From: Patescibacteria group bacterium
Lineage (GTDB): Bacteria > Patescibacteriota > Microgenomatia > Levybacterales > UBA12049
Reading direction: 5' to 3'
Assembly (NCBI GenBank): GCA_035946335.1
Contig: DASYZL010000006.1
Location: 175,664-239,663, forward strand
DNA length: 64,000 nucleotides
In this document: piece after piece, positions 28,304 to 49,570 of the stretch
Numbering within the stretch: the first letter of the stretch is position 1
How the letters are laid out: each line of letters begins with the position of its first letter
Notes under the pieces: generated by a model
Told to the model about the DNA's origin: nothing
The model's database searches: none
The model's input: only the letters and a program-made list of their open reading frames with translations
Position numbers and translations under genes: made by a program

Positions 28304-28380
28304 CTCCTGTCTTTTTCTTTTATTTTTTAACTTCTTATTGAAGCTAATCTGGGAGGATTAGCTTTATATAAAAAGATAAA

Positions 28381-29284: not shown

Positions 29285-29368
29285 AAGTAAGACAAGCTAG
29301 TAAAAAGGTTATACAATAAATTGAAAAAACTTGCCGTTTAATTAAATGGGGGATTTTTTTTAATGTTT

Positions 29369-30277: not shown

Positions 30278-30353
30278 TTTTTATTTCAATCTGAATCTCT
30301 ATTTATGGTTTGTTTGATTTTAGCACAACCATTATTATGAAGTAAGTTGAGCT

Positions 30354-30779: not shown

Positions 30780-31417
30780 AAAATTATAAACACGCACCAG
30801 CGCTTATTAACTCATGGCTCACTTCTTTCTATGACCCCGTTATGAATATGTTTGGCGTCGGCACGCTGTTTCAGAAGAAAACATTAGATATTGTAACATT
30901 ACAAGAGGGACAAAAACTTCTCGATATTGGTTGTGGGACAGGAACGCTTGTAATGCTTGTTAAAACGAAACATCCGAAAGCGAAAGTAACAGGATTAGAC
31001 CCTGACCAGCATGTGCTAGCGATTGCAAAGAGAAAAGCAGAAAGAAGTAATCATGCGATTGATTTTATTCAAGCAGGAGCAGAGAAACTTCCATTTGCCT
31101 CAAGTTCATTTGATATTATTACCAGTTCATTAGCATTTCACCATTTACCAACAACAATAAAGAAACAAGCATTGGGAGAAATTTACAGAGTATTAAAACC
31201 AACAGGGCAGTTTCTTCTTGTAGATATTGGGAAACCAAAAAATTTGCTTTGGAAAATACTTCTTGCGATTGAAAGTATTGTTGAACCAAAGGAATATATC
31301 AAAGATAATCTTGAAGGAAAGCTCCCTGCATTTATGATAGAAGCGGGGTTTGCGCTAAAAGAAGTTCGTAAACCTTATTTGAGTATTCAGTTTCTAATGG
31401 GAACAAAAAAGAGTTAA
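30776..31417 (+). CDS. Class I SAM-dependent methyltransferase (UbiE/COQ5-like)
   Basis: Motif I LDIGCGTGTL, motif post-I VTGLD, and an acidic loop. Confidence 0.75.
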   Translation: MKNYKHAPALINSWLTSFYDPVMNMFGVGTLFQKKTLDIVTLQEGQKLLDIGCGTGTLVMLVKTKHPKAKVTGLDPDQHVLAIAKRKAERSNHAIDFIQAGAEKLPFASSSFDIITSSLAFHHLPTTIKKQALGEIYRVLKPTGQFLLVDIGKPKNLLWKILLAIESIVEPKEYIKDNLEGKLPAFMIEAGFALKEVRKPYLSIQFLMGTKKS

Positions 31418-31418
31418 T

Positions 31419-32066
31419 TTATATCGTAGGTTTTCTTATATTATGTTTTTTCATCCATAAGCATAAATTAGCTGGTGTTGTGCGATAACGATTTGAGATA
31501 AACGCTTGTGTCGCTCCGTTGATAAGCAACCCTTCGATTTCTAGTCTGAATTGGTCAAGTTTAGATTTTCCTACTTTGCCTCGTGGTCTTCCTAACACTG
31601 TTCCGTTTAATTTTTTTATTCTCAGTGCCTCAGTCGTCCGTTGTGAAATTAGAGAGCGTTCAATTTCAGAACAAAGGGCAAAAACTGTGCCGATGATTTT
31701 TGACTGCATTGTTCCATCGAGCTTCCAAGCACCCTTGACGCTGAATACGTTAATCTTCTTCCTTGAGCAGATAGAAAGAATTTCAACGATTTCAAGTAAA
31801 CTTCTGCCGAGCCGTGAAATTTCTGCGACAATCAAGTTGTCTCCTTCTTGTAAAACATCAATCAACTCAGATATTTTTCTTTTTTTCCAGCTTACTTTAC
31901 CGCTTATTTTTTCCTCAATAAAGGTCACGTTGCCAAGTTTTAATTCATTAGCAAGGGCTAGGATAGAGGATTTATCTTTCTCTAAATCCTGAGAAGCTTG
32001 ACTAACACGAAGGTAGGAAAGAGTCTGAGAAGTACGATTTTGCTGTTGATTAAGTGAAAACGTCAT
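31419..32066 (-). CDS. Small serine recombinase (resolvase/invertase family) with a C-terminal HTH
   Basis: YLRVSQASQD contains the catalytic Ser. The resolvase fold is followed by a C-terminal HTH. Confidence 0.7.
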   Translation of the reverse strand: MTFSLNQQQNRTSQTLSYLRVSQASQDLEKDKSSILALANELKLGNVTFIEEKISGKVSWKKRKISELIDVLQEGDNLIVAEISRLGRSLLEIVEILSICSRKKINVFSVKGAWKLDGTMQSKIIGTVFALCSEIERSLISQRTTEALRIKKLNGTVLGRPRGKVGKSKLDQFRLEIEGLLINGATQAFISNRYRTTPANLCLWMKKHNIRKPTI

Positions 32067-32189
32067 AAAGTGATTTTTATTATAATGTCTTTTATAGCCA
32101 ATGCAAGCCTTTTTACTTAATGAAACAGAAAAGAAAAATGACCGTTTTTTCTATATGGAGAAGCCATGCTTATTTGTTATACTACACGC

Positions 32190-32729
32190 ATGGCTGACGC
32201 ACGTTCGTATTTGGATACAAGTTTTTTATCGGCACTTATCAGAAGAAACATCCACGACCCATTAGAATTACAAGCGATTATCCGTATTCACTCATTTTGG
32301 GAGCAGGGTTTCATACAGTGTTATGTGAGTGAAGCAGTTAAGAAAGAATTAGAAAAAATACCAGCAAAGTACAAAACACAAAATGACAAATTAGCTGTGT
32401 TATATATGCTTTTGGAAAAAGCGGAGATGTTTCCTACACATCAGATGTTTACCTCTATGTTTGGTGGCGCACCTTTTGGGACAGTTCCTTTTGGTGGAGC
32501 TACGATAGCAAATGACCCGATTTTTCAACAACTATCTGCAATCTTTGATAGAGAAGATGCGGAGCATATTTTTCTTTGTATTAAAAATGGCATCCCATAC
32601 TTTTTGACATACGATGTCCGCACAATATTGAACCGAGCAAGGCAAAACAAAGCCCTTTTGAAAGGATTTGGTATTGAGATTCTTTCCCCGAGAGAATTTG
32701 AAGATACTGTTCTTTCAGGACAAAAATAG
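32190..32729 (+). CDS. PIN-domain protein (putative RNase/toxin)
   Basis: The acidic tetrad is placed as in PIN domains: YLDTSFL, SEAVKKE, DREDAEH and LTYDVRT. Confidence 0.5.
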   Translation: MADARSYLDTSFLSALIRRNIHDPLELQAIIRIHSFWEQGFIQCYVSEAVKKELEKIPAKYKTQNDKLAVLYMLLEKAEMFPTHQMFTSMFGGAPFGTVPFGGATIANDPIFQQLSAIFDREDAEHIFLCIKNGIPYFLTYDVRTILNRARQNKALLKGFGIEILSPREFEDTVLSGQK

Positions 32730-32739
32730 ATTAGTATGT

Positions 32740-33501
32740 ATGAAAAATATACCTCAAGAAAATTATATTATCGGCAAATGTATTTATTGCGGAACTGTTA
32801 ATGACTCGCTCTCCCGTGAACATATTGTCCCATACGGGCTTAATGGAGAATGGATTTTGCAAAAAGCAAGTTGTACTAGATGCTCTGATATTACCTCAAA
32901 ATTTGAACTAAGCGTACTAAAAGGATTATTACCTCAAGCTCGTGCCGCTCTGAAGTATCAAACCAGACATGGACATCCAAAAACTTTCCCTGTCAAGATG
33001 AAGATAGCGGGTCAATGGCAAAAATTTGATATAACTCCTGATGAGTATGGAGCAATTATACTATTTCCGTTATTTAGACAGCCTGCTTATCTGGATAATC
33101 GTTCTCCGTTACAAGGAACTTTGGATATTCTGGGTACTGGGATGCACAGGCTAGGTGGTACTGATATGAGTATTCTACACAAAAAATATAATGCTGAAAG
33201 CATTGATTTCAGATTTGAATTTGACCCAGGTGCTTTTCTTAAGCTGTTGGCAAAGGTGGCATACGGGTATGCAGTACTATACTACGGCTTGGATGTATTC
33301 GATAAAATATACGCACTCCCTATAATAATGGGACAAACTGACGAAGTTGACCGTTGGATTGGAAGTGAAAAATCTTCAATAGGAAATGAGGAGGTTTCTA
33401 TTGTTTTGCATCAGACAGGGAAAGACCTTATCGCAAAAATACGACTTTTTGGGAAACGAGAAGTCCCAACCTATATTGTTGTAGTGGGTTCAATAAAGTA
33501 A
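32740..33501 (+). CDS. HNH endonuclease family protein
   Basis: CIYCG...SREHIVPYGLNGEW...CTRC forms a CxxC...H...N...CxxC beta-beta-alpha-Me motif. It lies immediately downstream of the PIN gene. Confidence 0.65.
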   Translation: MKNIPQENYIIGKCIYCGTVNDSLSREHIVPYGLNGEWILQKASCTRCSDITSKFELSVLKGLLPQARAALKYQTRHGHPKTFPVKMKIAGQWQKFDITPDEYGAIILFPLFRQPAYLDNRSPLQGTLDILGTGMHRLGGTDMSILHKKYNAESIDFRFEFDPGAFLKLLAKVAYGYAVLYYGLDVFDKIYALPIIMGQTDEVDRWIGSEKSSIGNEEVSIVLHQTGKDLIAKIRLFGKREVPTYIVVVGSIK

Positions 33502-33605
33502 GTATTTAGGCATTTTACTTTGGTGGAATGTGGTGTAGTTGAAGGCAGTTAGGGATAGTTCCTGAAGCTAAAAATAATGTCCATAGTTGTTCGGTTGCAC
33601 CAAAA

Positions 33606-33626
33606 TGGTGTAATTTGGATTACACC
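33606..33626. terminator. Bidirectional hairpin terminator between the convergent HNH and XRE genes
   Basis: Perfect 8-bp stem GGTGTAAT-ttgg-ATTACACC. Confidence 0.4.
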
Positions 33627-33642
33627 AGAATAATATTGATTA

Positions 33643-33870
33643 TCACTCAAGCAACTCAGACATTTTTACTCCTAAATATCGTGCAATTTTATCAAGCGTA
33701 GCTATTGATGGGTTTCGGACGCCTTGTTCGATAAAGCCAAGGTAAACAGGTGTTATCCCGATTTTCTCCGCCATTATTACTTGGGAAACATCCTTATCTT
33801 GTCTTAGCTGCTGTATTTTCTTTCCAACACTTTTTGGGATACGAGAATAATATTTTTTCCCTTTTGTCAT
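33643..33870 (-). CDS. XRE-family HTH transcriptional regulator
   Basis: QQLRQDKDVSQVIMAEKIGITPVYLGFIEQG HTH. Confidence 0.75.
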   Translation of the reverse strand: MTKGKKYYSRIPKSVGKKIQQLRQDKDVSQVIMAEKIGITPVYLGFIEQGVRNPSIATLDKIARYLGVKMSELLE

Positions 33871-33905
33871 GCTCGTATTATCGAACTTAAGCGTGACGAT
33901 GTATC

Positions 33906-33967
33906 CAAACTATTTGTTTGAGTTTGTGGTATAATTAGGCATAAGAATTACTCAAACTGTATGTTTG
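33906..33967. promoter_or_regulatory. Divergent promoter region with two CAAAC-N5-GTTTG operator palindromes flanking a TATAAT -10 box
   Basis: CAAACtatttGTTTG at 33906..33920 and CAAACtgtatGTTTG at 33953..33967. TATAAT lies at about 33930..33935. Confidence 0.5.
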
Positions 33968-33983
33968 AGTAATGGAATAACTT

Positions 33984-34283
33984 ATGAATCACACATTCAC
34001 AACAAAAACGTGGGGAGGAAATAAGCCTGTTTCTGATGTGATACTCATTATTGTTTTTATTTTAAGCGTAATACTTATGATAAGTATTATTGGAGCGCCA
34101 ATAGGAGTAATTCTGCTCTTTTTTCCCTTATCGGAGTATATGGTAAATATGAGAACGATTTGTCCTTCTTGTAAGAAAAGGGTTTCTGTCTTTAGAAGCG
34201 CTAAAGCGTTTTCTTGTTATAACTGTCAAAGAGTAATGGTCAAGAAAAATAATCAGTGGGTGATAATGCCTGAAGACAAATGA
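33984..34283 (+). CDS. Small membrane protein with a zinc-ribbon (CxxC...CxxC)
   Basis: TM segment followed by CPSCKK...CYNCQ. Confidence 0.45.
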   Translation: MNHTFTTKTWGGNKPVSDVILIIVFILSVILMISIIGAPIGVILLFFPLSEYMVNMRTICPSCKKRVSVFRSAKAFSCYNCQRVMVKKNNQWVIMPEDK

Positions 34284-34311
34284 GAGGGAATTACCAGTAT
34301 TTACGAATAGT

Positions 34312-35484
34312 CTAATTCAAGAAATTATTTCCTTTTCCTAAATTACATTTTTCGCAAAGCGTCTGCAAGTTTTCAAATATTGTTCTTCCGCCTTTTGAAA
34401 ATGGTACTTTATGGTCAATGTGTAGTCGGCATTGAGAATCTGTTGCTGGACTTGCTCCGCATTTCACACACTTGAAGTTATCTCTACTTAAAATTTTGTA
34501 CCGTAAACCGAGACCTACTTCTCTTTTTTCAACAATTAAAGTATTTGCTGTTTGTTTTATTATTTCTACAGTTTTTGTTGTTTTGGATTTAATGTCAGTG
34601 GGTTTTTCATGTTCTATAATTTCTTCAAATTCTTTTTCTTCTTGGTTCATTCTCACCACAAATGCCTCAAGTGCTTTACGCCAACTACCAAAATGTCCTT
34701 TATAAGTATTTGCTTTAATCTTTGATGGCTGAATGTCCATCTCTCCATACTTTGGTTGTCTTCCATAGCGTGTCCAAACAGTTAATAAATTCTCAAAATA
34801 TTCTTCGTCGGAATATGCCCGATTATATTTTTCAGAGATTTTTAATCCTGCTTTTTCCATAGCAGTAGCCCATGTACCAAATCGACGAGTTGCAACTCCC
34901 ACACTCATAACATTAGAGTAATGTCTTACATCTTCGTGGCTTACTGATTCCGTATTGAGCAACTTGGCAATTCTTTTTAGCTCATCAAGTACGTCTTGAT
35001 TTGTTAATGATTTTGCTTTTGGCTTACGCATGTTCTCTGTAATGATTGTTCCAGAATATTTATGACCAACACCTGCTTTTTCTAACGCTTGCTGCCATCC
35101 ACCAAAACGACTAATAAAAGTACCTGAGCTAATTTCACTATGTTGGTCAAAGTCCTTTCTTCTTATGACTTTCACATCAAGTGCTTCTGCAACTCTTTTT
35201 AATTCCTTGAGTACTTCTTGGTCTGTTAGCTGTTGCGCCTTTTGCAAGCGCATTTTATCTGTAATTTCTGTACCAATGTATTTATGTCCCAATCCAGCAG
35301 TAGTGAGTGCATTTTCCCAACTGCCAAATCTAAGTTTTACTCCGTCAGAACTCATTTTTGCGTGCTTGTTGTAATCAGTTTGAGTTAGCTTTTCCTTACC
35401 GACTAATACATCAACACGTTTTATTTCTGCAATAACATCTTCATCAGGGCAATTCCTCGGTAAATTGCTTAATTCAAATTTCAT
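34312..35484 (-). CDS. HNH endonuclease with four N-terminal homing-endonuclease-associated (HNH) repeats
   Basis: There are four repeats of about 60 aa (FGSWENALTTAGLGHKY / FGGWQQALEKAGVGHKY / FGTWATAMEKAGL / FGSWRKALEAF). The C-terminal core is CVKCG...HIDHKVPFSKGG...CEKCN. Confidence 0.75.
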   Translation of the reverse strand: MKFELSNLPRNCPDEDVIAEIKRVDVLVGKEKLTQTDYNKHAKMSSDGVKLRFGSWENALTTAGLGHKYIGTEITDKMRLQKAQQLTDQEVLKELKRVAEALDVKVIRRKDFDQHSEISSGTFISRFGGWQQALEKAGVGHKYSGTIITENMRKPKAKSLTNQDVLDELKRIAKLLNTESVSHEDVRHYSNVMSVGVATRRFGTWATAMEKAGLKISEKYNRAYSDEEYFENLLTVWTRYGRQPKYGEMDIQPSKIKANTYKGHFGSWRKALEAFVVRMNQEEKEFEEIIEHEKPTDIKSKTTKTVEIIKQTANTLIVEKREVGLGLRYKILSRDNFKCVKCGASPATDSQCRLHIDHKVPFSKGGRTIFENLQTLCEKCNLGKGNNFLN

Positions 35485-35561
35485 AGCTATTTTTCACTTC
35501 CTACTATTATATCATTAGCTTTTCAAGGCTAGAAAAGGATAAATAGTAATGTCGGAAGTGT

Positions 35562-36359
35562 TTATTTTCTAAGAAGGTTAATCGAGGGTTTTCCTAACAT
35601 TGGAGTTAATTCACTAAAAGAACTGTCTAATGTTGTTACTGTAAGATGCTTCGGACAATCAGTAGCAATAACAACGTCTCCGATAGCTTTATTTATTGGA
35701 TATTTATTTGCGTTTTTCACATCTTTTTCAATTTCTACTAATTTTGCATATATCTTATTTATCACTTTTGATTTATCAAAGACGTCTTTATTTGAGAGTA
35801 ATTTTTTTAATTCTTCTATGTGTGCCTTCCAAAAAACATCTAATGGTATTGATTTTCGGCTATTGTAAGCATCAACAAACGGCTCGTAATCATCTTTACT
35901 TCTTAATTTGAATCTGACTATCTCATCTCCTGCAAAATCTCCCACCATGCTTAGTAAATCAGTATCAAAGTTATTAACTAAATTAAAAATTACTGCCTCT
36001 ATTTGCCTTAAATATTTTGCGGTATCTTGGGTAGGGATGGATTTGTTCACACTTGCCATTATTGCCTGTAAAATATGAATATTCTTTAATTCTCTTTTCC
36101 CGTACTTTTTAGACCACCAAGCCAAAGCAAGAGAAGGACTATCAAGAAGTTTCACACGATAATAAAATTCTACCATGTTTCTTATAAAGCCTGTCTTAAA
36201 TTCATAGAGGACAAAATGAGAGGAATATAAGACGCTATTTTGCGGTAACAATCTCAGGATACTCCCATCCTTATCAGGCACAAATTTGCTTATTTGAATG
36301 GATGTTTCTAGGAGTAATCGTGTGCTTTTATCAGTTTTCTTCTTTTTGTTTTTTGCCAT
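35562..36359 (-). CDS. Hypothetical protein (265 aa), third gene of a three-gene operon
   Basis: Overlaps the upstream gene by 29 nt. No recognisable motif. Confidence 0.45.
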   Translation of the reverse strand: MAKNKKKKTDKSTRLLLETSIQISKFVPDKDGSILRLLPQNSVLYSSHFVLYEFKTGFIRNMVEFYYRVKLLDSPSLALAWWSKKYGKRELKNIHILQAIMASVNKSIPTQDTAKYLRQIEAVIFNLVNNFDTDLLSMVGDFAGDEIVRFKLRSKDDYEPFVDAYNSRKSIPLDVFWKAHIEELKKLLSNKDVFDKSKVINKIYAKLVEIEKDVKNANKYPINKAIGDVVIATDCPKHLTVTTLDSSFSELTPMLGKPSINLLRK

Positions 36360-36912
36360 GATTATTAGTGCCTTTCAACAAATACATTTTCTTCCTATAC
36401 AGTTGCTTTGAGAACATTGATAGACCATCCCAATTTACTTCACCCTCATTAAACCTCTTTAACTCTGTTTGGAAATATTTAATGTCTTTTTTATCCATTG
36501 TTTCCCAGTTATTATTCTCAAATAGTAATTCGAGCATGGATAATAAAATCCTTGTCTCTGATTTTTGGGTTAAATAATCAGCGTTTTCTTGTAGTAAGTC
36601 TTTGATATTACTGATATGTGCCAATGCGTCTTCTGTCTCCAAATTTTCCCAGGCAGAAAGTTCGTCATTTATCTTTTTTATTAAGGCATAGGTATTGTAG
36701 GAGATGTAATTACTAGAGTAATTTGTTCTGTAATATATGTTATTGTCTCCGTTTTCGCCAATCGAATGTATCGCAGGGTTTTGTGAAGAAATTTTTGTCA
36801 TTTCGTCAACATCCTTCTCAGGTGCTTTAGGCAAATATTGAGAATTGTCCTTAAAGTATTCCTCTAAGTTTACTGCTGTTTGTTGAAAAGTATATGAAGA
36901 TGCTATGCTCAT
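36331..36912 (-). CDS. Hypothetical protein (193 aa), second gene of a three-gene operon
   Basis: Overlaps the upstream gene by 4 nt (ATGA coupling). Confidence 0.45.
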   Translation of the reverse strand: MSIASSYTFQQTAVNLEEYFKDNSQYLPKAPEKDVDEMTKISSQNPAIHSIGENGDNNIYYRTNYSSNYISYNTYALIKKINDELSAWENLETEDALAHISNIKDLLQENADYLTQKSETRILLSMLELLFENNNWETMDKKDIKYFQTELKRFNEGEVNWDGLSMFSKQLYRKKMYLLKGTNNHGKKQKEEN

Positions 36913-37616
36913 AATGTTTGAATATAACCAAGATAATCTTTTGTTACTCGTAAATTTTCTTTAATTGCTTTGTCTAATTTTTCTAATGTGTTTTCGGCAG
37001 TGAGTCCACCCTCAATAAATATTGACACATCAATAAACAGATTACTGTCTTTAATATCTGTTTTATTATCTGGATAACTGCTATTAAAAGCCTTGATACC
37101 TTGGTCTTTCTTTACTGGCCCTATTTGCACATGATTAAGAAAACCATTTTTTGAGCCATCCAATACAAAAACAGAATCTCTTGGTGTATCTGCTGATATA
37201 TTTTTTACATCTTCATTTTGTGCGTAGAATTTTTTATATATTAATTCTACAAGTTCATTAAATTCAAAACTTGCTTCAAGAACTTGAGTGTGTCTCACTT
37301 CAAGTCTTCGGATTTGATTAACGCCAAGTTCTTTTGTGCTTTTGGTAAATATCTTGCTAATATAGTCATATAGTTCTTTAGTATCGTTCTTTCCTTCGTT
37401 CAAATAGGTAATAGTATCGAAAGTAATTTGTAAGATTTTCTTTTCGGAGGGAGAGTATAATGCAATATCTTCGTGTTTTTGTGCCGCCCATTCTTCAAAC
37501 TTATCTTCAACACCTGCGGCAAGAGAAGCGGTGCTATCAAATGTTTTAATTGTAGGACGGAATTTCACTTGTCCTACGATTCGATGTAGTTTTTCCGTTA
37601 AAAAGGTTTTAGCCAT
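36909..37616 (-). CDS. Hypothetical protein (235 aa), first gene of a three-gene operon
   Basis: Preceded by a perfect TATAAT -10 box. Confidence 0.45.
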   Translation of the reverse strand: MAKTFLTEKLHRIVGQVKFRPTIKTFDSTASLAAGVEDKFEEWAAQKHEDIALYSPSEKKILQITFDTITYLNEGKNDTKELYDYISKIFTKSTKELGVNQIRRLEVRHTQVLEASFEFNELVELIYKKFYAQNEDVKNISADTPRDSVFVLDGSKNGFLNHVQIGPVKKDQGIKAFNSSYPDNKTDIKDSNLFIDVSIFIEGGLTAENTLEKLDKAIKENLRVTKDYLGYIQTL

Positions 37617-37699
37617 ATCTATCTCAATCTAGGTCGCTATTATACCCCAATCAGCTTCAAAAGTAAAAAATACAATGATGCTCTACATATAATCTATCA

Positions 37700-38175
37700 T
37701 AATTTGTAAAAAACAAGATAGTAAGGTTTAATTATTTTTCTCCGACCTGCCGTACAGCTCCTAGCGCTTTATTTAGCGTTCGTTTCTGCTGAACTGATAT
37801 AAAGAGATAGTTCTTGATTTTTCTACTGTCCTGAGCTAAATGGCTGTTTTTATCTCAAAAGTATAACCGTTAGACTTTCTTCGCAAGAAGGTTATAGAAA
37901 ATCCTCATATAATTTCCAATGTAGCAATATTAACTTACCAGCCTCAAATTTACGGTTGATAGGTATGTCCACCTCTGCACCATAGTCCCTAACCTACACT
38001 CCTAGCCTCCTCTCTACGATACATATAAGAGATATTTTTTGGCAGATGCTTGGCTATCTTCCCTGTATGTATCGTAATATAGGCATGAAGCAGTGAATTA
38101 GAGGCTAGGGAGGTCATACATACCAGCCGTTCTTTTGTGCCTGAAATTTTATTTTAGTTACATTGTCAAAGAACA
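37700..38175. other. ORF-free structured region of about 480 bp (candidate ncRNA or replication origin)
   Basis: Nested long-range inverted repeats CCTAGCCTCC...GGAGGCTAGG and CGATACATA...TATGTATCG, plus a GNRA-capped hairpin TATAACC...CTTCgcaaGAAG...GGTTATA. Confidence 0.4.
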
Positions 38176-41838: not shown

Positions 41839-44307
41839 TTATGATGTCTTCATGAATGAAACAAACAAGAAATTGAGCGGTACGAGCGTAACAGGTCGTC
41901 GCGTTTTCGTGTATGGGTATACATACTGATTTATGATTGGGTTTTGTTTCATCCCTTCTTGGCCATTTGCTTGCAATTTGGAAGCAACATATGGCGTATA
42001 GGTAAGCGTAAAGGAAGGAAGTTCTACGTAATTGCGGATTAACTGCGCATTCATGTCTACAACATAGGGCGTGTTCGGAAGAAGAGTGTTGGGGGGAAGA
42101 TTAATACCAAAGCGTGATTGTGGATTTGTTACGGTTGTATATGGCTCGGAGCACTGTTCTGGATCAGTATTTGTACAATCCTCATTCGTCAATGTCAGCG
42201 TTACTGTTGATTGGTTCGCTGCAATCCCATAGAATGTTGGCGAAGAAACTGAAGTTGTATAATCTGTTTGTATTTGATCCGGCTGAAGGGAAGAGATAGA
42301 TGGATCACCAATGCCAGTTATATTAAGTATCGTTAACGGGAAAAGGGCTTGATTATCAACCGTCTGGTATGAATTAACCCGTACATAGAGAGAGTCACTC
42401 CCCAGAGAATGACCTGATTTATCAACTGCGACCACTTTCCACGCATAAGTTCCTGATAACGCCTTCCCTCCTGTTGCAAATGGTGTTTCTGATGACTCTT
42501 TTGCATAAACAACAATATGAGAACTTTCCTGATCATACTTTGCGCGAAAACCTGTTGTATCGTATGTACCATTATTTGTTGCATTGCTCAAATATTGATT
42601 CCTCATGGAATTTTCAAGATTGGTACTCACTGAAGCAAAATCAGGGGGAATATTATCAAGGTACAACTTCCAGGAAGATGTGCCTGCCTGCCGTACCCAG
42701 ACTTGATACTTTTGTAGATTATCGCGCATGTGTGCGCGCTGGGTATTAACAGAAAAATCAAATGACGGGTACGGTGTATCAACGTCACTGTTATCGTAAG
42801 GGGCGTTGAGGGTGAAGGGACTGAAAAAAAATGCATAAGGACTGCTATCACCGTTCGTATCGAGGGCTCGGACAACAACTGTGTAACCAGGTGTACTATT
42901 ACTATTTGCTAAAGGGTCAAATGCCAAGGTAAATGGTTCTGTATTTAAACGGAATGCCCCATTCACTGGCGTTGATTCCTGCCAACTATCCCCATTTGCA
43001 GCATATTGTACATCGGCAACAGTATAAGGACTTGGTGCCGTTGCCGTTCCGTTTATTATTATCGTATCATCGGGATTTGTTGTAAGATTGTTTGCAACAG
43101 ATACTGACGGGTTTTGCAAATTATTTTGGTAGATGAGAACACGATTATTCAGAGAATCTGCGACAGCAAGTTGAGTGTGATTAGAAAAAGCACCCTTCGG
43201 CGAAGACATTGTTGCCGGACCGATACCTCCTGCATTTGCTGATGAAGATGTAAAATTTTGTTGCCCAATAACAATGTTTGCAGCAGTAGCATTGTTGAAA
43301 GGAATTGCATTAAATGCAAGCACTCTATTCGCCTGGATATCTGAAACATAGAAGATACCATTCGAACTTGTTGCGTCAGTAGTAATACGAAGCGGCTGGA
43401 GTGATTGCGCAGAAATTGTTGCAGAAGTGTTTGCCGTGAAACTTGTTTGTCCAAGTACCACATCAGCAAAAATATTGGTACTTGTCGGCTCCGAAAGAAA
43501 AATAAGGACACGATAATTATTGGTGTCAGAAATAAGAAGCGATCCATTGTCAATGGTAATTCCTCGAGGATTACTCAGTGTGTTTCCGTTAACGCCTCCA
43601 GTATTGACAGTCACCGTACTGGTATCTGGTTGTCCAATAACAAAGTCTGCCGGAAGCGCTGAAGTAGAAGGAAAATTCAAATATCCTAAAACTCTATTAT
43701 TTCCAGCGTCTGCAATATACAACTTTGCACCATCTGAGGTTACATCTGCCGGGTTTGATAAGGATCTTGCACTCACTCCTCCGCTGTTTGCCGTACAAGT
43801 TGTAAATGAAGATTGTCCAAGCACATAATTTGCGCTTGGACCATTTTGAGTTGGTATGCCATTAAAAACTAATACACGATTATTGTTAGCATCTGCAACA
43901 AATAATTTGCCTCCTGTATAAAATATGCCCCCGTCTCCAAGATTAAATTTGCTTTGTGTACACCCTGATGTTTTTGTCGTGAAATCTGGCTGCCCAATCA
44001 CTACATCGGCTGCCTGATTATTCACACTTGGGATACTATTATAGACAAGTATCCTGTTATTCACAGCGTCTGCAACAAGCAACTGTGACCCGACAATCAA
44101 TGCCGCAGAAGGACTACTCATAGATTGAGCAGAAGTAGAACCGCCTTGATTTGCCTGAGACGAAATAAAATCTTTTTGTCCGATAACAACAGCTGCGGAA
44201 GCACTTGACGTATAGGCATGAGCAGCAGAAGGTGAAAGGAAGAAAAAAAGAAAAAAAAGTACAAGAAAAAAAACATAGTAGATTTTTTGGTACGAAATAT
44301 ACCCCAT
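41839..44307 (-). CDS. Secreted NHL-repeat beta-propeller protein with a large C-terminal domain
   Basis: Signal/TM segment, then six repeats containing the D/N-x-NNRVL motif (NNRILVYN, NNRVLVFN, NNRVLGY, NYRVLIF, ANRVLAFN, NNRVLIYQ). Start taken at MGYISYQ. Confidence 0.7.
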   Translation of the reverse strand: MGYISYQKIYYVFFLVLFFLFFFLSPSAAHAYTSSASAAVVIGQKDFISSQANQGGSTSAQSMSSPSAALIVGSQLLVADAVNNRILVYNSIPSVNNQAADVVIGQPDFTTKTSGCTQSKFNLGDGGIFYTGGKLFVADANNNRVLVFNGIPTQNGPSANYVLGQSSFTTCTANSGGVSARSLSNPADVTSDGAKLYIADAGNNRVLGYLNFPSTSALPADFVIGQPDTSTVTVNTGGVNGNTLSNPRGITIDNGSLLISDTNNYRVLIFLSEPTSTNIFADVVLGQTSFTANTSATISAQSLQPLRITTDATSSNGIFYVSDIQANRVLAFNAIPFNNATAANIVIGQQNFTSSSANAGGIGPATMSSPKGAFSNHTQLAVADSLNNRVLIYQNNLQNPSVSVANNLTTNPDDTIIINGTATAPSPYTVADVQYAANGDSWQESTPVNGAFRLNTEPFTLAFDPLANSNSTPGYTVVVRALDTNGDSSPYAFFFSPFTLNAPYDNSDVDTPYPSFDFSVNTQRAHMRDNLQKYQVWVRQAGTSSWKLYLDNIPPDFASVSTNLENSMRNQYLSNATNNGTYDTTGFRAKYDQESSHIVVYAKESSETPFATGGKALSGTYAWKVVAVDKSGHSLGSDSLYVRVNSYQTVDNQALFPLTILNITGIGDPSISSLQPDQIQTDYTTSVSSPTFYGIAANQSTVTLTLTNEDCTNTDPEQCSEPYTTVTNPQSRFGINLPPNTLLPNTPYVVDMNAQLIRNYVELPSFTLTYTPYVASKLQANGQEGMKQNPIINQYVYPYTKTRRPVTLVPLNFLFVSFMKTS

Positions 44308-44388
44308 ACCTTTTTTATAGCAGAAAAGAGAGAGAATAGTTAATGCCCATTTTCGTTTTTCTTTTTTTCCTTTACAATAAAGCAATAT

Positions 44389-46155
44389 ATGAAAACACTC
44401 AGAAGAATTATCTTACATGAATTAAGGCCATATCTCCTTGTATTAAGCTTTATTCTTTTCCTCATGCTCGTCGTTGTCGCCTTACAAGCAGCAGCACCGT
44501 GGCCATTTAAGTTTCTTATCGATAATGTTCTAGGAGATGAAACAATCAGCACCAAAACATTTATCGGATGGCTGATTTCATTAGTCCCTTCTCAAGAGCT
44601 TTTAGGATACATTGTTGTTTTGATATTTTTTCTTATCAGCATGGGATCAAGTATTGTTGAATACTTCCAGAGCAAATTACTTCGTAAGGTTATCCGGGGT
44701 ATTATTTTTGATTTTTCAAAAAGTGCTTTTTCACAATTAGAAGGATTTGATATGGGATTTTTCCGCAATCAAGACATAGGAGATTATATTTATCGATTGA
44801 ATTATGATGTTGGCGCTTTGGGTGAACTCATTGAAGAGGGAATTTTACCTATTATTTCCTCTGCATTTTACTTAATTTTTACTGCTATCTTAATGTTTAC
44901 CATCAGCTATAAATTAGCACTAATAGCTTTTCTTGCTCTCCCGTTTCTCGCAACCGGTTTATACATATTTAATAAACGCATTGAGGTGGGAACAAAACGC
45001 TCAGAGTTTTCAAATAGTACTGTTTTTACCTTTGTGCAACAGATACTCTCACAACTGAAGATTGTCCAAGTATTTTCCCAAGAAAAAAATGAATCGAAAG
45101 AATTTAATCTGAAGCTAAAAAAATCATTACAAAATGAGCTGTTGCTATACAACTTAAATTTTCTGCTCAGTCTTTTAGTCGGGGCTATCATTGCAATTAG
45201 CTATTCTCTTATTATAGGTATCGGCATTCATTTATTTTTCTTAGGGGAATTCTCAACTGGCCTTCTTATTGTTTTTATCTTTTATCTTGATAATTTGACA
45301 CAACCATTACTGGATATCATTTATGCTTCCAGTGCCTTCAAAGAGTCTTATGTACGTATTGAACGAATGAAAGATTTTTTTAATAAACGGAATCAACTCC
45401 ATAACACAGGGATCATAAAGGAGCTCTCTGATACAACGATTCAATTTCATAACGTCATTTTGGAAGGAAATCAAGGAATGAAAATTCTCCATAATATCTC
45501 ATTTACTATTCCGGAAAATAAAATGACCGTATTGGTCGGAGTAAGCGGATCAGGGAAAACATCAGTTATTTCACTTATCCCTCGCCTTCTGAGTAATCCA
45601 CAGCATGGAGAAATTTTGCTGGGCGATAAAAATATTAATACATATGATGTTATGACGCTTCGCAAGAACATTGCATATGTACCACAAGAAAATCTTCTTT
45701 TTAACCAATCAATATTTGAGATCATTGCATTTGGTGTTCCACATGCAACTCTTGCTGAAGTAAAGTACGCTGCAAAACTTGCATACGCTGATGAATTTAT
45801 CGAAAAACACCCACAAGGATATAACTTCCGGGTCGGAGATGAAGGAAATTATCTTTCAGGAGGTCAACGACAAAGACTTATGATTGCCAGAGCATTTATG
45901 AGAAAAACTGCGAAAATACTTATTTTCGATGAACCACTATCTTCTCTTGATATCCAAACAAGGAAAGATGTGTGGAAAAGTATTAAAACGTTTGCAGAAG
46001 GAAAAACAACGATTCTCGTCTCAAATGTGTTGGATGTTATTACGAACGCTGACCAGATACTCTTCTTAAATGATGGAAGACTTGCAGAACAAGGGAATCA
46101 CAAAAAGTTGCTAGAAAAATCAAATTTGTATACACTATTTGTAGAGAAAGAATAA
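44389..46155 (+). CDS. ABC transporter, fused permease and ATPase (type I exporter, MsbA/bacteriocin-exporter-like)
   Basis: Six TM segments, Walker A GVSGSGKTS, signature LSGGQRQRLMIARAF, and Walker B ILIFDEPLSSLD. Confidence 0.85.
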   Translation: MKTLRRIILHELRPYLLVLSFILFLMLVVVALQAAAPWPFKFLIDNVLGDETISTKTFIGWLISLVPSQELLGYIVVLIFFLISMGSSIVEYFQSKLLRKVIRGIIFDFSKSAFSQLEGFDMGFFRNQDIGDYIYRLNYDVGALGELIEEGILPIISSAFYLIFTAILMFTISYKLALIAFLALPFLATGLYIFNKRIEVGTKRSEFSNSTVFTFVQQILSQLKIVQVFSQEKNESKEFNLKLKKSLQNELLLYNLNFLLSLLVGAIIAISYSLIIGIGIHLFFLGEFSTGLLIVFIFYLDNLTQPLLDIIYASSAFKESYVRIERMKDFFNKRNQLHNTGIIKELSDTTIQFHNVILEGNQGMKILHNISFTIPENKMTVLVGVSGSGKTSVISLIPRLLSNPQHGEILLGDKNINTYDVMTLRKNIAYVPQENLLFNQSIFEIIAFGVPHATLAEVKYAAKLAYADEFIEKHPQGYNFRVGDEGNYLSGGQRQRLMIARAFMRKTAKILIFDEPLSSLDIQTRKDVWKSIKTFAEGKTTILVSNVLDVITNADQILFLNDGRLAEQGNHKKLLEKSNLYTLFVEKE

Positions 46156-46176
46156 TAAAGGGGGTGATAAAATCGT

Positions 46177-46284
46177 ATGGCAAAGCGCGAACGACAAAAA
46201 TCGCAACCAAGCAGACCTCAATCCAGGCCAAGTTCGTCTCGACCAGTTCCAAGAACAGGAAGAGTACGGGTAAAAGGGAGGTAA
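46177..46284 (+). CDS. Small, highly basic peptide (35 aa)
   Basis: Strong RBS GGGGGTGATAAAAtcgtATG. Product MAKRERQKSQPSRPQSRPSSSRPVPRTGRVRVKGR. Confidence 0.4.
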   Translation: MAKRERQKSQPSRPQSRPSSSRPVPRTGRVRVKGR

Positions 46285-46365
46285 GTAAAGCTATTGACAA
46301 AAGGATATGTTTCATGTTGCTATATGTAGTGAGAGGAATATATCTTTGAAAGGAGGTGATAAAAC

Positions 46366-46464
46366 ATGGCAATAAAAAGAACAGTTAAAACAGCACCAAA
46401 AAAGAAACCATCAGTTGCTAAAAAATCAGTAATCCATACTCCAGCAAGGCGTAAAAAAAGATAA
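46366..46464 (+). CDS. Small, highly basic peptide (32 aa), paralogous leader to the previous gene
   Basis: RBS GGAGGTGATAAAAcATG. Product MAIKRTVKTAPKKKPSVAKKSVIHTPARRKKR. Confidence 0.4.
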   Translation: MAIKRTVKTAPKKKPSVAKKSVIHTPARRKKR

Positions 46465-46566
46465 GTACTGATTCATCCTAAATCCACTGTCCATATTTGT
46501 AAGTGGATTTTAGGTATAATAGGAGTTTTTAAAGAAAATCATTGAACAAGAAGAAAGGAGGAAAAA

Positions 46567-46740
46567 ATGAAAAATAATGGCGCTGCGGGCGGTGTAGTTT
46601 ATGGATTAGGTTTTATAGGAGCAATCATTTATTACATTCAACATGCGACTACATTCTGGATTGGTGTCTTAGGTATTGTAAAAGCCATTATTTGGCCTGC
46701 ACTTCTTATTTACCGATTGCTTGGGTTCCTAAAAATGTGA
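46567..46740 (+). CDS. Small hydrophobic membrane peptide (57 aa)
   Basis: RBS GAAAGGAGGaaaaaATG. Product MKNNGAAGGVVYGLGFIGAIIYY... Confidence 0.4.
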   Translation: MKNNGAAGGVVYGLGFIGAIIYYIQHATTFWIGVLGIVKAIIWPALLIYRLLGFLKM

Positions 46741-46757
46741 AAGAAAATCCGAGCGTA

Positions 46758-46787
46758 CAACTCAATTACATAATTGCAATTGAGTTA
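46758..46787 (+). terminator. Hairpin downstream of the small-peptide genes
   Basis: CAACTCAATT-acataattgc-AATTGAGTTa, followed by a T-rich stretch. Confidence 0.3.
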
Positions 46788-46947
46788 TTGTGTAATATTT
46801 TAGTCATTTTTTCAAATTTCACAAAATATAGTAAATTCTTTGATGCTCTGATACAATAAACGAAATTTAATGTAAAGTCTACTTGACATTCTCCTCTTTT
46901 TATTTTACCCTTTTATAAACCATAAAATGCAATGAAAAATCTCATGC

Positions 46948-47160
46948 ATGAAAGAATATATCATCAACAATGTATCTGATCTCAGGAAAGAAAAAGATAT
47001 TACACAGGAAACATTTGCTCATGCCTTGGGAGTTTCAAGGCAAACAGTTGTTGCAATTGAGAAAGGAAACTATATTCCTTCCCTTTTACTTGGAATAAGA
47101 ATAGCACAATATTTCAAGAAAAGGGTTGAAGACATATTCATCTACGCTTATGAAAAATAA
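46948..47160 (+). CDS. XRE-family HTH transcriptional regulator
   Basis: QETFAHALGVSRQTVVAIEKG HTH. Confidence 0.75.
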   Translation: MKEYIINNVSDLRKEKDITQETFAHALGVSRQTVVAIEKGNYIPSLLLGIRIAQYFKKRVEDIFIYAYEK

Positions 47161-47515
47161 ATTTATTGGTGAAGCTATTATCTCAGTAGTACTTATCGCA
47201 TTGTTGGTCTTTTTCTTGAATCCTTTAGAGCTTGTGATGCCACAATCAGTGCACATGATCATGATTCCATTCCTCGTTGTTTTATTTATCGTTTTTACAG
47301 GAGTACTTTGGAAAGAAACTCCAGGAGATGAACGTGAACAACTTCATAAGTTTATCGCATCTCGCTTTGCGTATTTTGCAGCAGTTGCAACCCTTATTAT
47401 CGGTATAGTTATGCAAAGCTTCGAAAAAGCAATTGACCCCTGGCTTATTATAACAATCTGCGTTGCTTTACTTGCAAAAATTACTGGCCTAATCTATGGT
47501 TATTTTAGACATTAA
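47126..47515 (+). CDS. Membrane protein (3 TM), partner of the XRE regulator
   Basis: Hydrophobic 129-aa ORF overlapping the regulator's stop. Confidence 0.45.
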   Translation: MKTYSSTLMKNKFIGEAIISVVLIALLVFFLNPLELVMPQSVHMIMIPFLVVLFIVFTGVLWKETPGDEREQLHKFIASRFAYFAAVATLIIGIVMQSFEKAIDPWLIITICVALLAKITGLIYGYFRH

Positions 47516-47533: not shown

Positions 47534-47776
47534 ATGAACAACCAACTAATGTGGCTACTAGTTATCGTTGCGCTTCTTGTTGGAGCATTTGGTGGTTATT
47601 ATTACGAAAAATCCAAACTCACGAACCAAATGATGATGGTGGAATCCAGTCTTCAGCAACAGTTGAATGATGCAAAGATGAAGACCGATCAACTGATGAA
47701 AATGCAAACCACCCCTGTACCATCAGGGATGATGCATGTCACGATGACCCCAAAAAGTGTAATGATGCAAAAGTAA
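47534..47776 (+). CDS. Methionine-rich membrane-anchored small protein
   Basis: Strong RBS AAGGAGGTGAacaaacATG, an N-terminal TM helix, and 14 Met in 80 aa (MMMVE, MMHVTM, VMMQK). Confidence 0.55.
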   Translation: MNNQLMWLLVIVALLVGAFGGYYYEKSKLTNQMMMVESSLQQQLNDAKMKTDQLMKMQTTPVPSGMMHVTMTPKSVMMQK

Positions 47777-47836: not shown

Positions 47837-49570
47837 ATGATTTTACTACTATTATTTTCATTTTTAGCAGGTTTTGTTACCATCCTGGCCCCATGTATTT
47901 GGCCTGTGCTTCCTATAGTGCTTTCTTCATCTCTTGCTAGAGGACATCAGAGACCATTGGGAATCACCCTTGGAGTAATACTTAGCTTTACGATTTTCAC
48001 GCTTTCGGTTTCCTCTCTTGTTCGGTTGTTCCATCTTGATCCAAATGTCCTTCGTATATTTGCGGTCAGTATTATCATTTTTCTCGGGCTAACGATGATC
48101 ATTCCACCACTAACAACGAAATTTGAGCTTTTCTTGTCAAGATTATCAAATACAATAGGTCAAAATGCCGCAAACAAACAAGGTTCTGGATTTTTACCAG
48201 GATTTATTACCGGGCTTTCTCTTGGTATTGTTTGGAGTCCCTGTGCTGGACCAATTCTAGCAACTATTGCAGCACTCGCGGCAACTGGACAGGTATCGTT
48301 TCAAGTTGTTTTAGTGACCCTTGCTTACGTTACAGGGGCTGGAATTCCACTCTTTGCCTTTGCCTATGGTGGACAACAATTTATGACTAAAGCACGGGGA
48401 ATGAATAAATATACAGGAAGGGTTCAACAAGTATTTGGAGTCATCATGATCCTTGCAGCTATTGCAATTTTTACCAATTATGATCAAACGCTTCAATTAC
48501 AACTCCTGAACGAATTCCCTGCGCTGGGGACTGCGGTTAATGGATTTGAAAACAGTAGCTTTGTTACAAACCAACTTAATCTCTTAAAAGGAACGCAGTC
48601 AATACAAAGTCCTGATACGAGTGGACTTTTTAACGCAAACCAACCTGCTCCTAATTTTATTGGCATTGATAAATGGTTGAATACAGATAAACCGTTAACA
48701 ATCAACAGCCTGAAAGGTAAAGTCGTATTAGTTGATTTTTGGACCTACACCTGTATTAACTGCATTCGCACTCTTCCTCATGTGACCAGTTGGTATGACA
48801 AATATAAAGATAATGGATTTATAGTTATTGGCGTCCATACACCAGAGTTTCAGTTTGAACACGACAGCAATAATGTCGTTAACGCAATAAAAATGTATAA
48901 CATCCATTATCCAGTTGCCCAAGACAATGAATATGCTACATGGAATAACTATAACAATGAATACTGGCCAGCTGAATATCTTATAGATGCAAAGGGCCTT
49001 ATCAGACGTACCCATTTCGGCGAGGGAGAGTATAATCAAATGGAAATGGCAATACGCTCTCTTCTTCAGGAAGCTGGGCAAAAAGTCACAGCAACACTTG
49101 ATACAAAACCCGATCAGACACCTCAATCTCAGATATCTCCTGAAACATACCTCGGCTCCAAACGTATGCAATATTATTTCCCTTCAGGAAATGTAGGTAA
49201 TGGTATACAAACATTTTCTTTATCAAATAATCTCAGCCAGAACAGCTTTAGTTATGGCGGGCAATGGACAATAACTGACGAGTATGCAATTTCAGGAAAC
49301 AATGCAGCGTTAAATTATAACTTTTCCGCGAGTAAAGTATTTATCATTCTTCGTCCTGGTTCTGCAAAAAACCCAATAGTTAAGGTATTTCTCGATGGAA
49401 AAATTATTGACCCTTCCCTTGCAGGAAGCGATGTGAAAAACGGTATCATAACCATTAACAGAGATAGATTATATAGTATCGTAGACCTCAAGGGTCAGAC
49501 CGGAAATCATATTCTCAAACTCGAATTCCAAACGTCTGGGGTACAAGCATATACATTTACCTTTGGATAA
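47837..49570 (+). CDS. CcdA/DsbD-like transmembrane thiol-disulfide electron transporter fused to an extracytoplasmic thioredoxin-like (TlpA/ResA) domain and a C-terminal beta domain
   Basis: A cytochrome-c-biogenesis DsbD-type membrane domain with Cys in TM1 (APCIWPV) and TM4 (SPCAGP), followed by a redoxin WTYTCINCIR CxxC motif. Confidence 0.8.
   Translation: MILLLLFSFLAGFVTILAPCIWPVLPIVLSSSLARGHQRPLGITLGVILSFTIFTLSVSSLVRLFHLDPNVLRIFAVSIIIFLGLTMIIPPLTTKFELFLSRLSNTIGQNAANKQGSGFLPGFITGLSLGIVWSPCAGPILATIAALAATGQVSFQVVLVTLAYVTGAGIPLFAFAYGGQQFMTKARGMNKYTGRVQQVFGVIMILAAIAIFTNYDQTLQLQLLNEFPALGTAVNGFENSSFVTNQLNLLKGTQSIQSPDTSGLFNANQPAPNFIGIDKWLNTDKPLTINSLKGKVVLVDFWTYTCINCIRTLPHVTSWYDKYKDNGFIVIGVHTPEFQFEHDSNNVVNAIKMYNIHYPVAQDNEYATWNNYNNEYWPAEYLIDAKGLIRRTHFGEGEYNQMEMAIRSLLQEAGQKVTATLDTKPDQTPQSQISPETYLGSKRMQYYFPSGNVGNGIQTFSLSNNLSQNSFSYGGQWTITDEYAISGNNAALNYNFSASKVFIILRPGSAKNPIVKVFLDGKIIDPSLAGSDVKNGIITINRDRLYSIVDLKGQTGNHILKLEFQTSGVQAYTFTFG

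Follow-up and report, generated by a model that had tools for sequence, protein, structure and literature searches.

Two families of polycationic micro-peptide genes next to an ABC exporter gene in Patescibacteria

What are the very small and very basic peptides encoded directly downstream of an ABC exporter gene in Patescibacteria, and is their function tied to the exporter? The question is raised by a locus of a Patescibacteria group bacterium on the contig DASYZL010000006.1. A 64-kb stretch of this contig was analysed and is called the window here; the segment under study is 44389–46740. It contains four open reading frames (ORFs), all on the + strand: the exporter and three small ORFs, sORF1, sORF2, and sORF3. 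The original prediction described an exporter followed by three short ORFs with strong Shine-Dalgarno (SD) sequences, and all of them are confirmed, with ATG starts. Sequence comparison indicates that sORF1 and sORF2 are genuine protein-coding genes, representing two families (A and B) of polycationic, intrinsically disordered micro-proteins. Most likely, the pump has the peptides as its cargo or as its partners.

sORF1 (family A) is located at 46177–46284 (+) and encodes a 35-aa peptide, MAKRERQKSQPSRPQSRPSSSRPVPRTGRVRVKGR, with a net charge of +11 and a C-terminal GRVRV core. It is operonic with the exporter. sORF2 (family B) is located at 46366–46464 (+) and encodes a 32-aa peptide, MAIKRTVKTAPKKKPSVAKKSVIHTPARRKKR, with a net charge of +13, which starts with MA.KR and has the C-terminus TPARRKKR. 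The two sizes are as originally predicted. The content of Lys, Arg, Ser, and Pro, counted by eye, is above 50% in both peptides, also in agreement; Lys and Arg (K+R) alone account for 34% of sORF1 and 41% of sORF2. The extended SD GGGGGTGAT (46160–46168, +) lies 8 nt before the ATG of sORF1 and 4 nt past the exporter stop codon. The corresponding sequence for sORF2, AGGAGGTGAT (46351–46360, +), lies 5 nt before the ATG.

The two genes were initially considered paralogs that share a duplicated leader. The string GGTGATAAAA-N-ATGGCAA is indeed present before both, but it is composed of the extended SD and the Met-Ala codons. GGTGATAAAA is the 3' part of the extended SD (A)GGAGGTGAT, which is the complement of the 3' tail of 16S rRNA, and ATGGCA codes Met-Ala and nothing more. 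The sequence G[AG]GGGTGA is seen in six copies in the window, five of which sit 5–9 nt before the ATG of a small ORF, and three copies precede ORFs unrelated to the peptides, at 28307 (−), 28598 (−), and 47520 (+). The "leader" is the generic extended SD of this genome (GGAGGTGA). BLASTP of sORF1 against sORF2 gives no alignment even at E ≤ 100, and the two belong to separate families and are not detectably paralogous. Because the leader is a generic SD and the peptides do not align, a recent duplication is unsupported.

Loci with relatives of the exporter were gathered from genome and metagenome collections, together with the contigs of homologs from protein searches. Of the 13 distinct loci in which exporter identity reaches at least 52%, 12 have one or two such ORFs immediately after the exporter gene, each beginning with ATG behind a GGAGGTGA-type SD. 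A lack of conserved reading frames at homologous loci had been named as what would refute the original reading, and this is clearly not the case: in these 12 loci the frames of sORF1 and sORF2 are open and led by an SD beside the exporter. The GGAGGTGA box is present in all orthologous loci. Families A and B are found together in the window (exporter identity 100%), L042/L060 (90%, C-terminal fragment), L061 (75%), L062 (61%), L001/L056–59 (60%), and L064/65 (57%). L063 (58%) has family A, plus family B on the opposite strand, and L002/L016 (58%) has family A only. Two copies of family B are present in L043 (55%) and L017 (53%), and one copy in L018 and L066 (52% each). L019 (52%) has none. 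No peptide ORFs are seen at the exporter loci L067 (49%), L068 (48%; Levybacteria), and L069 (46%; Doudnabacteria), nor at about 35 distant ABC loci, low-GC ones included.

The association was also examined from the side of the peptides, with ATG-starting ORFs of 18–60 aa, at least 30% K+R, and an SD as the criteria. In the 64-kb window, only sORF1 and sORF2 combine at least 30% K+R with a strong SD. Across the 338 kb of fetched loci, ORFs of this type that have a GGAGG-class SD are present only beside orthologs of this exporter. The sole other matches in the 338 kb are three Arg/Gly-rich ORFs with a weaker SD on high-GC contigs of Planctomycetota.

In the neighbor-joining tree of 54 exporters, the loci with both families constitute one clade, the loci with only family B fall in two neighboring clades, and the outgroups are without peptides. 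The exporter of L019 (P0143) is grouped with the peptide-less outgroups. Based on this clade pattern, the peptide trait is monophyletic and vertically inherited in one lineage of Patescibacteria. Two loci in the collection carry other names. L001 (CAYQEE010000001.1) is labelled "uncultured Gammaproteobacteria", yet it has the full Patescibacteria-type NHL-exporter-peptide module, 35% GC, and the same extended SD. L002 (DATMOG010000005.1) is labelled "Candidatus Sulfotelmatobacter", yet it has the exporter and a family A peptide only, with 35% GC and the same extended SD. The taxonomic labels or bins of these two look doubtful.

Upstream of the exporter in the window is a gene for an NHL-repeat surface protein (41839–44385, −; Pfam NHL, E 6e-17) of about 820–848 aa, with an uncertain start codon and an N-terminal hydrophobic segment. 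Orthologs adjoin the exporter in L001/L056–58, L061, L062, L063, and L064/65, in either divergent or convergent orientation. The window protein is 43% identical over 774 aa to the neighbor in L001, and identities are 43–60% across L001 and L061–L064. In the subclade with both families, the NHL-repeat protein is a syntenic partner of the exporter and joins the exporter-peptide module. Whether the NHL gene is divergent and upstream or convergent and downstream, and although the other flanking genes are entirely different, the peptide genes remain beside the exporter. Even the inverted family B gene of L063 still adjoins it. The variable orientation of the NHL gene implies that exporter and peptides changed place relative to it as one block.

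At this base composition, chance alone would leave all 21 ORFs open with a probability of about 2e-18. In the pooled composition of 608 residues, Lys and Arg are seen 240 times against 70 expected, Asp and Glu 2 times against 36 expected, and Phe, Trp, Tyr, and Cys 3 times against 91 expected. Independent gene callers predicted such ORFs in other assemblies, of 36 and 31 aa and of 34 and 29 aa (the family A members are P0121 and P0122). Common gene callers need about 30 codons, and many family members are shorter. Between the window and L060, indels of 3 and 9 nt are inside the ORFs and those of 5 and 2 nt are in the spacer. The substitutions per codon position are [11,11,11] for family A and [10,14,14] for family B, versus [5,1,17] for the last 49 codons of the exporter, which are strongly constrained. 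Fast-evolving peptides, whether secreted or needed only for their charge, are expected to show such a flat distribution. The open frames, the skewed composition, the stable charge, and the flat codon-position substitutions indicate that selection acts on the frame, the length, the charge, the depletion of acidic, aromatic, and Cys residues, and a short motif, while the remaining sequence drifts almost freely. Protamines and other polycationic disordered proteins evolve by such charge-conserving drift.

Family A is represented by eight distinct sequences of 29–40 aa, whose only shared core is [I/L/F/T/R]GRV[R/S][V/I]. The core is C-terminal in the window, L060, L061, and L001, in the middle of the peptide in L062 and L063, and N-terminal in L002 and L064. 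Outside the core, the sequences are rich in Ser, Pro, Lys, Arg, Thr, and Gln. The start is always 15–25 nt past the exporter stop codon (8 distinct loci, exporter identity 57–90%). Family B includes 13 genes of 21–34 aa in 11 distinct loci, one of them on the opposite strand (L063) and two copies each in L017 and L043. These peptides mostly start with MA.KK, are rich in Lys, Ala, Thr, Pro, and Val, and contain a loose motif [V/I/L][R/K][R/K]P[G/A][K/R] near the C-terminus. The net charge is +9 to +11 in family A and +10 to +13 in family B, across lengths of 21–40 aa. Hydrophobic residues account for 0–21%, the grand average of hydropathy is -0.75 to -2.15, and K+R content is 25–62%. The peptides are Pro-rich (one to seven Pro each; 14% in family A and 9% in family B), and no fold is predicted for them.

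Family B is probably an independent small transcription unit, since it has its own TTGACA-like box, a hairpin after the gene, and cases of duplication and inversion. The hairpins and TTGACA boxes were picked by eye and by folding, and are candidates only. In the window, the spacer before sORF2 (46294–46347, +) contains a TTGACA box (46294–46299) and a stable hairpin, as seen by RNA folding. The whole spacer (46282–46365) folds at -17.7 kcal/mol (z -4.0), and its hairpin overlaps the TTGACA box. The sequence block with this hairpin is also kept in L060, the relative with 90% identity. The spacer may serve sORF2 as a promoter, act as a terminator or processing hairpin, or do both; the hairpin may also have no role. 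Downstream of sORF2, the hairpin CCTAAATCCACT...AGTGGATTTTAGG (46478–46514, +; -14.8 kcal/mol, z -2.0) is kept in L060 and L061 and is likely an intrinsic terminator. A strict promoter and terminator scan of the window found nothing convincing and did not call this hairpin. L001 and L043 have a textbook terminator, a hairpin with a T-run, after the peptide genes. In most loci, a TTGACA-like box is seen 65–100 nt upstream of the family B genes. The distance from the -35-like TTGACA to a -10-like A/T box is about 19–21 nt, not the canonical 17, for the family B genes of the window, L060, L001, L063, and L064. This spacing may be coincidental or may reflect a promoter geometry particular to the lineage.

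Searches with the peptides returned almost nothing beyond the collected loci. sORF1 and sORF2 have no match in Pfam and NCBIfam (at E ≤ 1), PHROGs, or PADLOC. Profile searches of both families against PDB at E ≤ 10 found no ribosomal protein; the only match, to the N-terminus of uS14 (E 1.3), is by chance. The concatenated profile of families A and B retrieved only the two orthologs already seen. The HMMER search with the family A profile against 1.84 billion representatives retrieved the same two and a 2212-aa low-complexity protein; apart from the latter, no longer protein bears the profile. No Rfam match at E ≤ 1 is present on either strand of 46100–46960. No description of such peptides in Patescibacteria was found in the literature searched. 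The peptide families match no Pfam, NCBIfam, PHROG, PADLOC, or PDB entry, and small cationic peptide genes beside an ABC exporter are an already known kind. What is new is the charge-only unstructured peptides, the composition-level selection, and the occurrence in Patescibacteria.

The exporter (44389–46155, +) is a protein of 588 aa, in which a six-helix ABC_membrane domain (PF00664, E 2e-29) is fused to a nucleotide-binding ABC_tran domain (PF00005, E 3e-27). An entry in NCBI from a metagenome-assembled genome of a Patescibacteria group bacterium is 100% identical. Pfam and NCBIfam scans found no further domain, peptidase or accessory; the C39 peptidase domain is absent, and the protein begins straight at the first transmembrane helix. 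The bacteriocin_ABC model aligns only from its position 197, with 203 bits versus a cut-off of 524. The matches to MsbA, TAP2, HepA, HlyB, bacteriocin_ABC, and other NCBIfam models are all far under the curated cut-offs. The best relatives in PDB are ABCB1, Sav1866, TmrAB (226 bits), BmrA, MsbA, and ABCB9 (203 bits). By this similarity, the exporter can be classified as a generic ABCB-type half-transporter (type IV fold), which presumably works as a homodimer. The PADLOC matches to mad3 and AriA reflect generic ABC-ATPase similarity.

Two further possibilities concerning the frames around the exporter stop codon were rejected. One is read-through from the exporter into sORF1: they are in the same frame in the window but four stop codons lie between them, and they are out of frame in L001. 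The other is a 110-aa antisense ORF (46040–46372, −), which overlaps the 3' end of the exporter, has a TTG start without a visible SD-like site, and is the mirror of the Lys-rich frame. The segment had been described as AT-rich, and this is true only mildly: GC is 0.337 in 46001–47000, versus 0.33–0.45 elsewhere in the window.

Could the pump have another role? Neighbors of the exporter are often envelope-glycan enzymes (polysaccharide deacetylase, YfhO, GT2, GT4, PMT_2, and the MptA_B family), and further neighbors are SecA, DHO dehydrogenase, and glycosyltransferases. The exporter family predates the peptides, as the relatives with 46–49% identity carry a Beta-lactamase2 gene instead of peptides; it may have an envelope-related housekeeping role. 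In L067 (4770–5777; 49%) and L069 (4797–5804; 46%), a 335-aa membrane-anchored protein with a Beta-lactamase2 domain is encoded 3–33 nt after the peptide-less exporter. This neighbor hints at a cell-wall-related ancestral role of the pump.

The charge of the exporter was compared between 26 exporters of peptide-bearing clades and 26 peptide-less relatives (proteins P0123–P0242 and the loci L017, L018, and L043). The net charge of the nucleotide-binding domain (NBD) is about -1 in the former and +4 to +5.5 in the latter (Mann-Whitney p = 3.5e-7). The NBD of peptide-bearing exporters is thus about 5–6 charge units less positive. They are also more acidic in intracellular loop (ICL) 1 by about 2 units, in extracellular loop (ECL) 1 by about 0.5–1.5, and in ECL3 by about 1, whereas ICL2 differs in the opposite direction. 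The shift may fit co-adaptation to a polycation at the cytosolic and outer faces; it could also be lineage drift. Acidic residues in the transmembrane cavity were considered as a mark of a cationic substrate and rejected, as none is specific to the peptide-bearing clades; only E51 and Q69 in ECL1 and one position in ICL2 differ.

Leaderless export by the adjacent pump is tentatively favored, at rather less than an even chance, by analogy to known transporters. The peptides would be made without a leader at a high rate, from a perfect SD and with their own terminators and, in family B, probably their own promoter. The adjacent homodimeric ABCB pump would translocate them as unfolded chains, in the manner of free-peptide transport by TAPL and TmrAB, and their secretion would resemble that of the leaderless LsbB via LmrB, a pump of the multidrug resistance (MDR) type. 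Once outside, their charge would let them act on the polyanionic surface of a host or competitor, or on the envelope of the producer itself. The pump would also protect the producer, and sORF3 would be an unrelated neighboring gene. This export is favored because the conserved context suggests a functional tie, the ABCB class includes free-peptide transporters, and LsbB is a precedent.

TAP, TAPL (ABCB9), and TmrAB translocate free peptides that are unfolded and up to tens of residues long. The exporter shares with them the ABCB half-transporter architecture and a detectable relationship, and is no closer to them than to the drug and lipid pumps ABCB1, Sav1866, BmrA, and MsbA. Compatible with export are the inclusion of the peptide transporters TmrAB and ABCB9 in the ABCB class, the Pro-rich unfolded nature of the peptides, the copy number of one or two, the flat substitution pattern, and the less positive NBD and more acidic ECL1 and ECL3 of the peptide-bearing clades. 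The closest bacteriocin parallel is leaderless class IId, such as LsbB with LmrB in Lactococcus lactis, where a small cationic leaderless unmodified peptide is encoded beside a single ABC pump (PMC6131525). This single MDR-type pump is the sole secretion and immunity factor of LsbB (PMC6131525). A small cationic unmodified leaderless peptide next to a dedicated ABC transporter, one hallmark of class IId bacteriocins, is what is seen here. The LsbB- and aureocin-type peptides are different in having an amphiphilic helix with aromatics; the present peptides have none, are Pro-rich, and show two to three times the charge density. They have no sequence similarity to the LsbB and aureocin types.

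The export and the nucleic-acid binding of the peptides, both originally proposed, remain the two leading readings, while the bacteriocin-type system, also proposed, is not upheld. No GG/GA/GS double-glycine leader pattern is seen in either family (21–40 aa in total), and composition analysis found no amphipathic or hydrophobic helical core, with aromatics nearly absent. RiPP modification enzymes (for ribosomally synthesized and post-translationally modified peptides) do not recur among the neighbors across loci, and neither a leader peptide, a modification enzyme, nor a conserved immunity gene was found in the 12 loci. The C39 domain is also lacking. The [S/T/K]-[R/K]-P repeats and the basic C-terminus of family A are reminiscent of proline-rich antimicrobial peptides (PrAMPs) such as drosocin, Bac7, and apidaecin. 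The Pro content of both families is below that of typical PrAMPs. The C-terminal Gly-Lys/Arg was considered as a signal for amidation, recognized by the NHL propeller in a PAL-like manner; this was set aside as speculative, as the signal is present in only five of eight family A peptides and no monooxygenase partner was seen.

Several points weigh against leaderless export. In the alignment, no clade-specific charged-residue change is seen inside the membrane helices or the cavity of the exporter, and only one or two evolutionary events underlie the charge shift of the NBD. An amphipathic or hydrophobic element is present in known bacteriocins and most antimicrobial peptides; the composition of the present peptides, with their few hydrophobic residues, is closest to those of tiny ribosomal proteins and protamines. 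The exporter family also has a longer history and a wider distribution than the peptides; because of the peptide-less relatives and the envelope-glycan enzymes in the neighborhood, the pump probably has a housekeeping substrate other than peptides. Besides, a gene of about 100 bp packed tightly behind a larger gene can persist neutrally. In its full form, the proposal is that a lineage of Patescibacteria secretes leaderless, non-amphipathic polycations of +9 to +13 in 21–40 residues via a dedicated ABCB homodimer whose NBDs have lost positive charge, and that these are protamine- or PrAMP-like and outside the known bacteriocin classes. Stated so specifically, it is possible but doubtful. The same doubt applies jointly to this secretion and to the action of the polycations, whether on the surface of a host or competitor or on polyanions inside cells.

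Alternatively, the peptides could be intracellular polyanion binders, that is, lineage-specific ribosome- or nucleoid-associated proteins that are hitch-hiking behind the exporter, in which case their position would mean nothing for function. This is the main rival, only slightly less probable than export and likewise below an even chance. bL37, bS22, bTHX, protamine, and H1-tail-like peptides can be named as analogs. In composition, charge density, and length, the peptides are nearer to tiny ribosomal proteins than to any antimicrobial peptide, with K+R of 25–62% and no aromatics or Cys. bL37, bS22, and bTHX are similar in length (24–33 aa), charge (+10 to +18), and lack of aromatics and Cys, and were likewise long unannotated for their shortness. 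The very strong SD, the promoter-like boxes of their own, and the terminators suggest abundant expression. The strings S/T-P-K/R-K/R and R-R-P-G-K presumably resemble the SPKK and AT-hook-like minor-groove motifs. The charge content is kept while the sequence drifts freely, as in protamines; protamines and PrAMPs are eukaryotic, and the resemblance is without homology. That the exporter family predates the peptides also fits binding inside the cell.

The observations against intracellular binding are of two kinds. Homology to solved ribosomal proteins and to Pfam and NCBIfam families is absent: the profiles of families A and B find none of bL37, bS22, and bTHX in PDB at E ≤ 10, and no longer protein has the family A profile. 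The other kind is the link to the exporter. The genes of bL37, bS22, and bTHX are not known to be tied to a transporter. The adjacency to the exporter has outlived several local rearrangements, including the inversion of the family B gene alone, and the charge of the exporter NBD co-varies with the presence of peptides.

If the link to the exporter is direct, export is not the only way to explain it. The peptides could be partners of the exporter in the cytosol, with an accessory or regulatory role. They would dock by the short GRVRV or RRPGK motif on the NBD or the intracellular loops, bind the acidic inner leaflet with their basic tails, and tune ATPase activity or gating. The position of family A, always 15–25 nt past the exporter stop codon, is an arrangement typical of stoichiometric subunits. 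The short motif at variable positions in disordered tails is like short linear binding motifs, and the NBD and ICL1 are less positive in the peptide-bearing clades. Nevertheless, such a partnership is improbable. Family B genes are separate transcription units, which can be duplicated or inverted and are without GRVRV. The small transporter partners KdpF, CydX, and AcrZ are hydrophobic membrane peptides, and we know of no transporter partner with a charge of at least +10 and no hydrophobic anchor.

The product itself could even be irrelevant, if the small ORFs were cis-acting regulatory frames in which the ribosome stalls on polybasic or Pro stretches and which thereby control mRNA fate or neighboring genes. 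They resemble the SecM- and RAPP-type arrest peptides, whose small ORFs also contain Arg/Pro/Gly motifs and lie close to export-machinery genes (PMC12992588). The poly-Lys and Pro content, the nearly unconstrained primary sequence, the stable hairpin between sORF1 and sORF2 in the window, and the family A ORF that precedes secA in L002 are in line with stalling. However, arrest peptides are located upstream of the regulated gene and have defined arrest motifs, while the present ORFs are downstream of the exporter and before unrelated or convergent genes. The downstream genes differ at every locus and are often convergent or behind a terminator; only L002 has secA downstream, and a terminator-like hairpin lies between. 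None of the motifs RAPP, RAGP, and RGPP is present in the peptides, and no Rfam element is found at E ≤ 1. A stalling element needs no selection on charge or against Asp/Glu and aromatics. Cis-regulation is thus very unlikely.

sORF3 (46567–46740, +) encodes a hydrophobic two-helix membrane protein of 57 aa. It was originally described as a 57-aa double-helix membrane peptide, and the AlphaFold2 (AF2) model, a two-helix hairpin with a predicted local distance difference test score (pLDDT) of 85.6, agrees with this. The protein has no match in Pfam, NCBIfam, PHROG, or PADLOC, and the AF2 model has no fold match in PDB. There are 219 homologs, with E down to 1e-28, none of them with a recorded Pfam domain; the named sources include Patescibacteria and Xanthocytophaga (Bacteroidota), among others. 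The family core is AVYGLGFIGA..YYIQHATTFW.GVLG.LKA..WPA..VY, with invariant Y12, G18, F30, G33, G36, K39, W43, and P44. By tblastn, sORF3 is found in none of the other exporter loci, including the 11 other peptide-bearing loci. Two homologs were checked, and their contexts are unrelated, beside PMT_2 or a Crp-type regulator. sORF3 is a real gene of a separate widespread family that neighbors the module only in this genome.

The absence of sORF3 from the other exporter loci and the unrelated contexts of its homologs speak against the one system into which the three small ORFs had been grouped, and for the same reasons sORF3 is not a conserved immunity partner. A bacteriocin-type cluster served by the exporter, with sORF3 as a small membrane immunity protein, is suggested by the order in the window (exporter, two cationic peptides, small two-helix membrane protein), but it is extremely unlikely given that none of the 11 other peptide-bearing loci has sORF3, that its 219 homologs include other phyla and occur in unrelated contexts, and that neither a double-glycine leader nor a C39 domain is present. 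In L070 and L072 (both from GCA_040961635.1), two paralogs of the sORF3 family are each followed by a convergent gene for a protein of 387–456 aa without Pfam matches. This protein may be a conserved partner of the sORF3 family.

Other features of the window are independent of the peptide genes. Directly after sORF3, a 70-aa XRE-type HTH_3 regulator (46948–47160, +) and a multi-pass membrane protein of 129 aa (47126–47515, +), for which there is no family assignment, form a small gene pair in which the former overlaps the start of the latter. At 47534–47776 (+), just before a DsbD_TM-thioredoxin fusion gene (47837–49570), an 80-aa ORF with the perfect extended SD (AAAGGAGGTGAAC) encodes a hydrophobic helix at the N-terminus and a tail rich in Met and Gln. 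At 25917–26207 (+), a group I intron of 218 nt (Rfam RF00028, 107 bits, 25941–26161) splits tRNA-Asn(GTT) in the anticodon loop; the tRNA was missed by default ARAGORN and found with the intron option. The stretch 27000–38000 has lower GC (0.33–0.37), with small charged, mainly acidic ORFs at its left end (27.7–28.6 kb), and may be a mobile or phage-derived island. The acidic small ORFs are of 75, 89, and 67 aa (27683–27910, 28034–28303, and 28381–28584, all −), and two of them have the same extended SD as the peptide genes.

These micro-genes could be recognized and validated by comparative context alone. The locus defines a testable module, a pump with one or two peptides, in a major uncultivated radiation whose host interaction is poorly understood; the Patescibacteria concerned are ultra-small and probably host-dependent. 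If the peptides are exported, bacterial secreted peptides would widen to charge-only unstructured polycations, with a simple two-gene secretion cassette. If they are binders of the ribosome or DNA, they would be lineage-specific additions to the machinery of translation or of the nucleoid, which is reduced in the Candidate Phyla Radiation. Either way, they would be a bacterial case of composition-level selection, in which charge, length, and the depletion of acidic and aromatic residues are kept while the sequence drifts.

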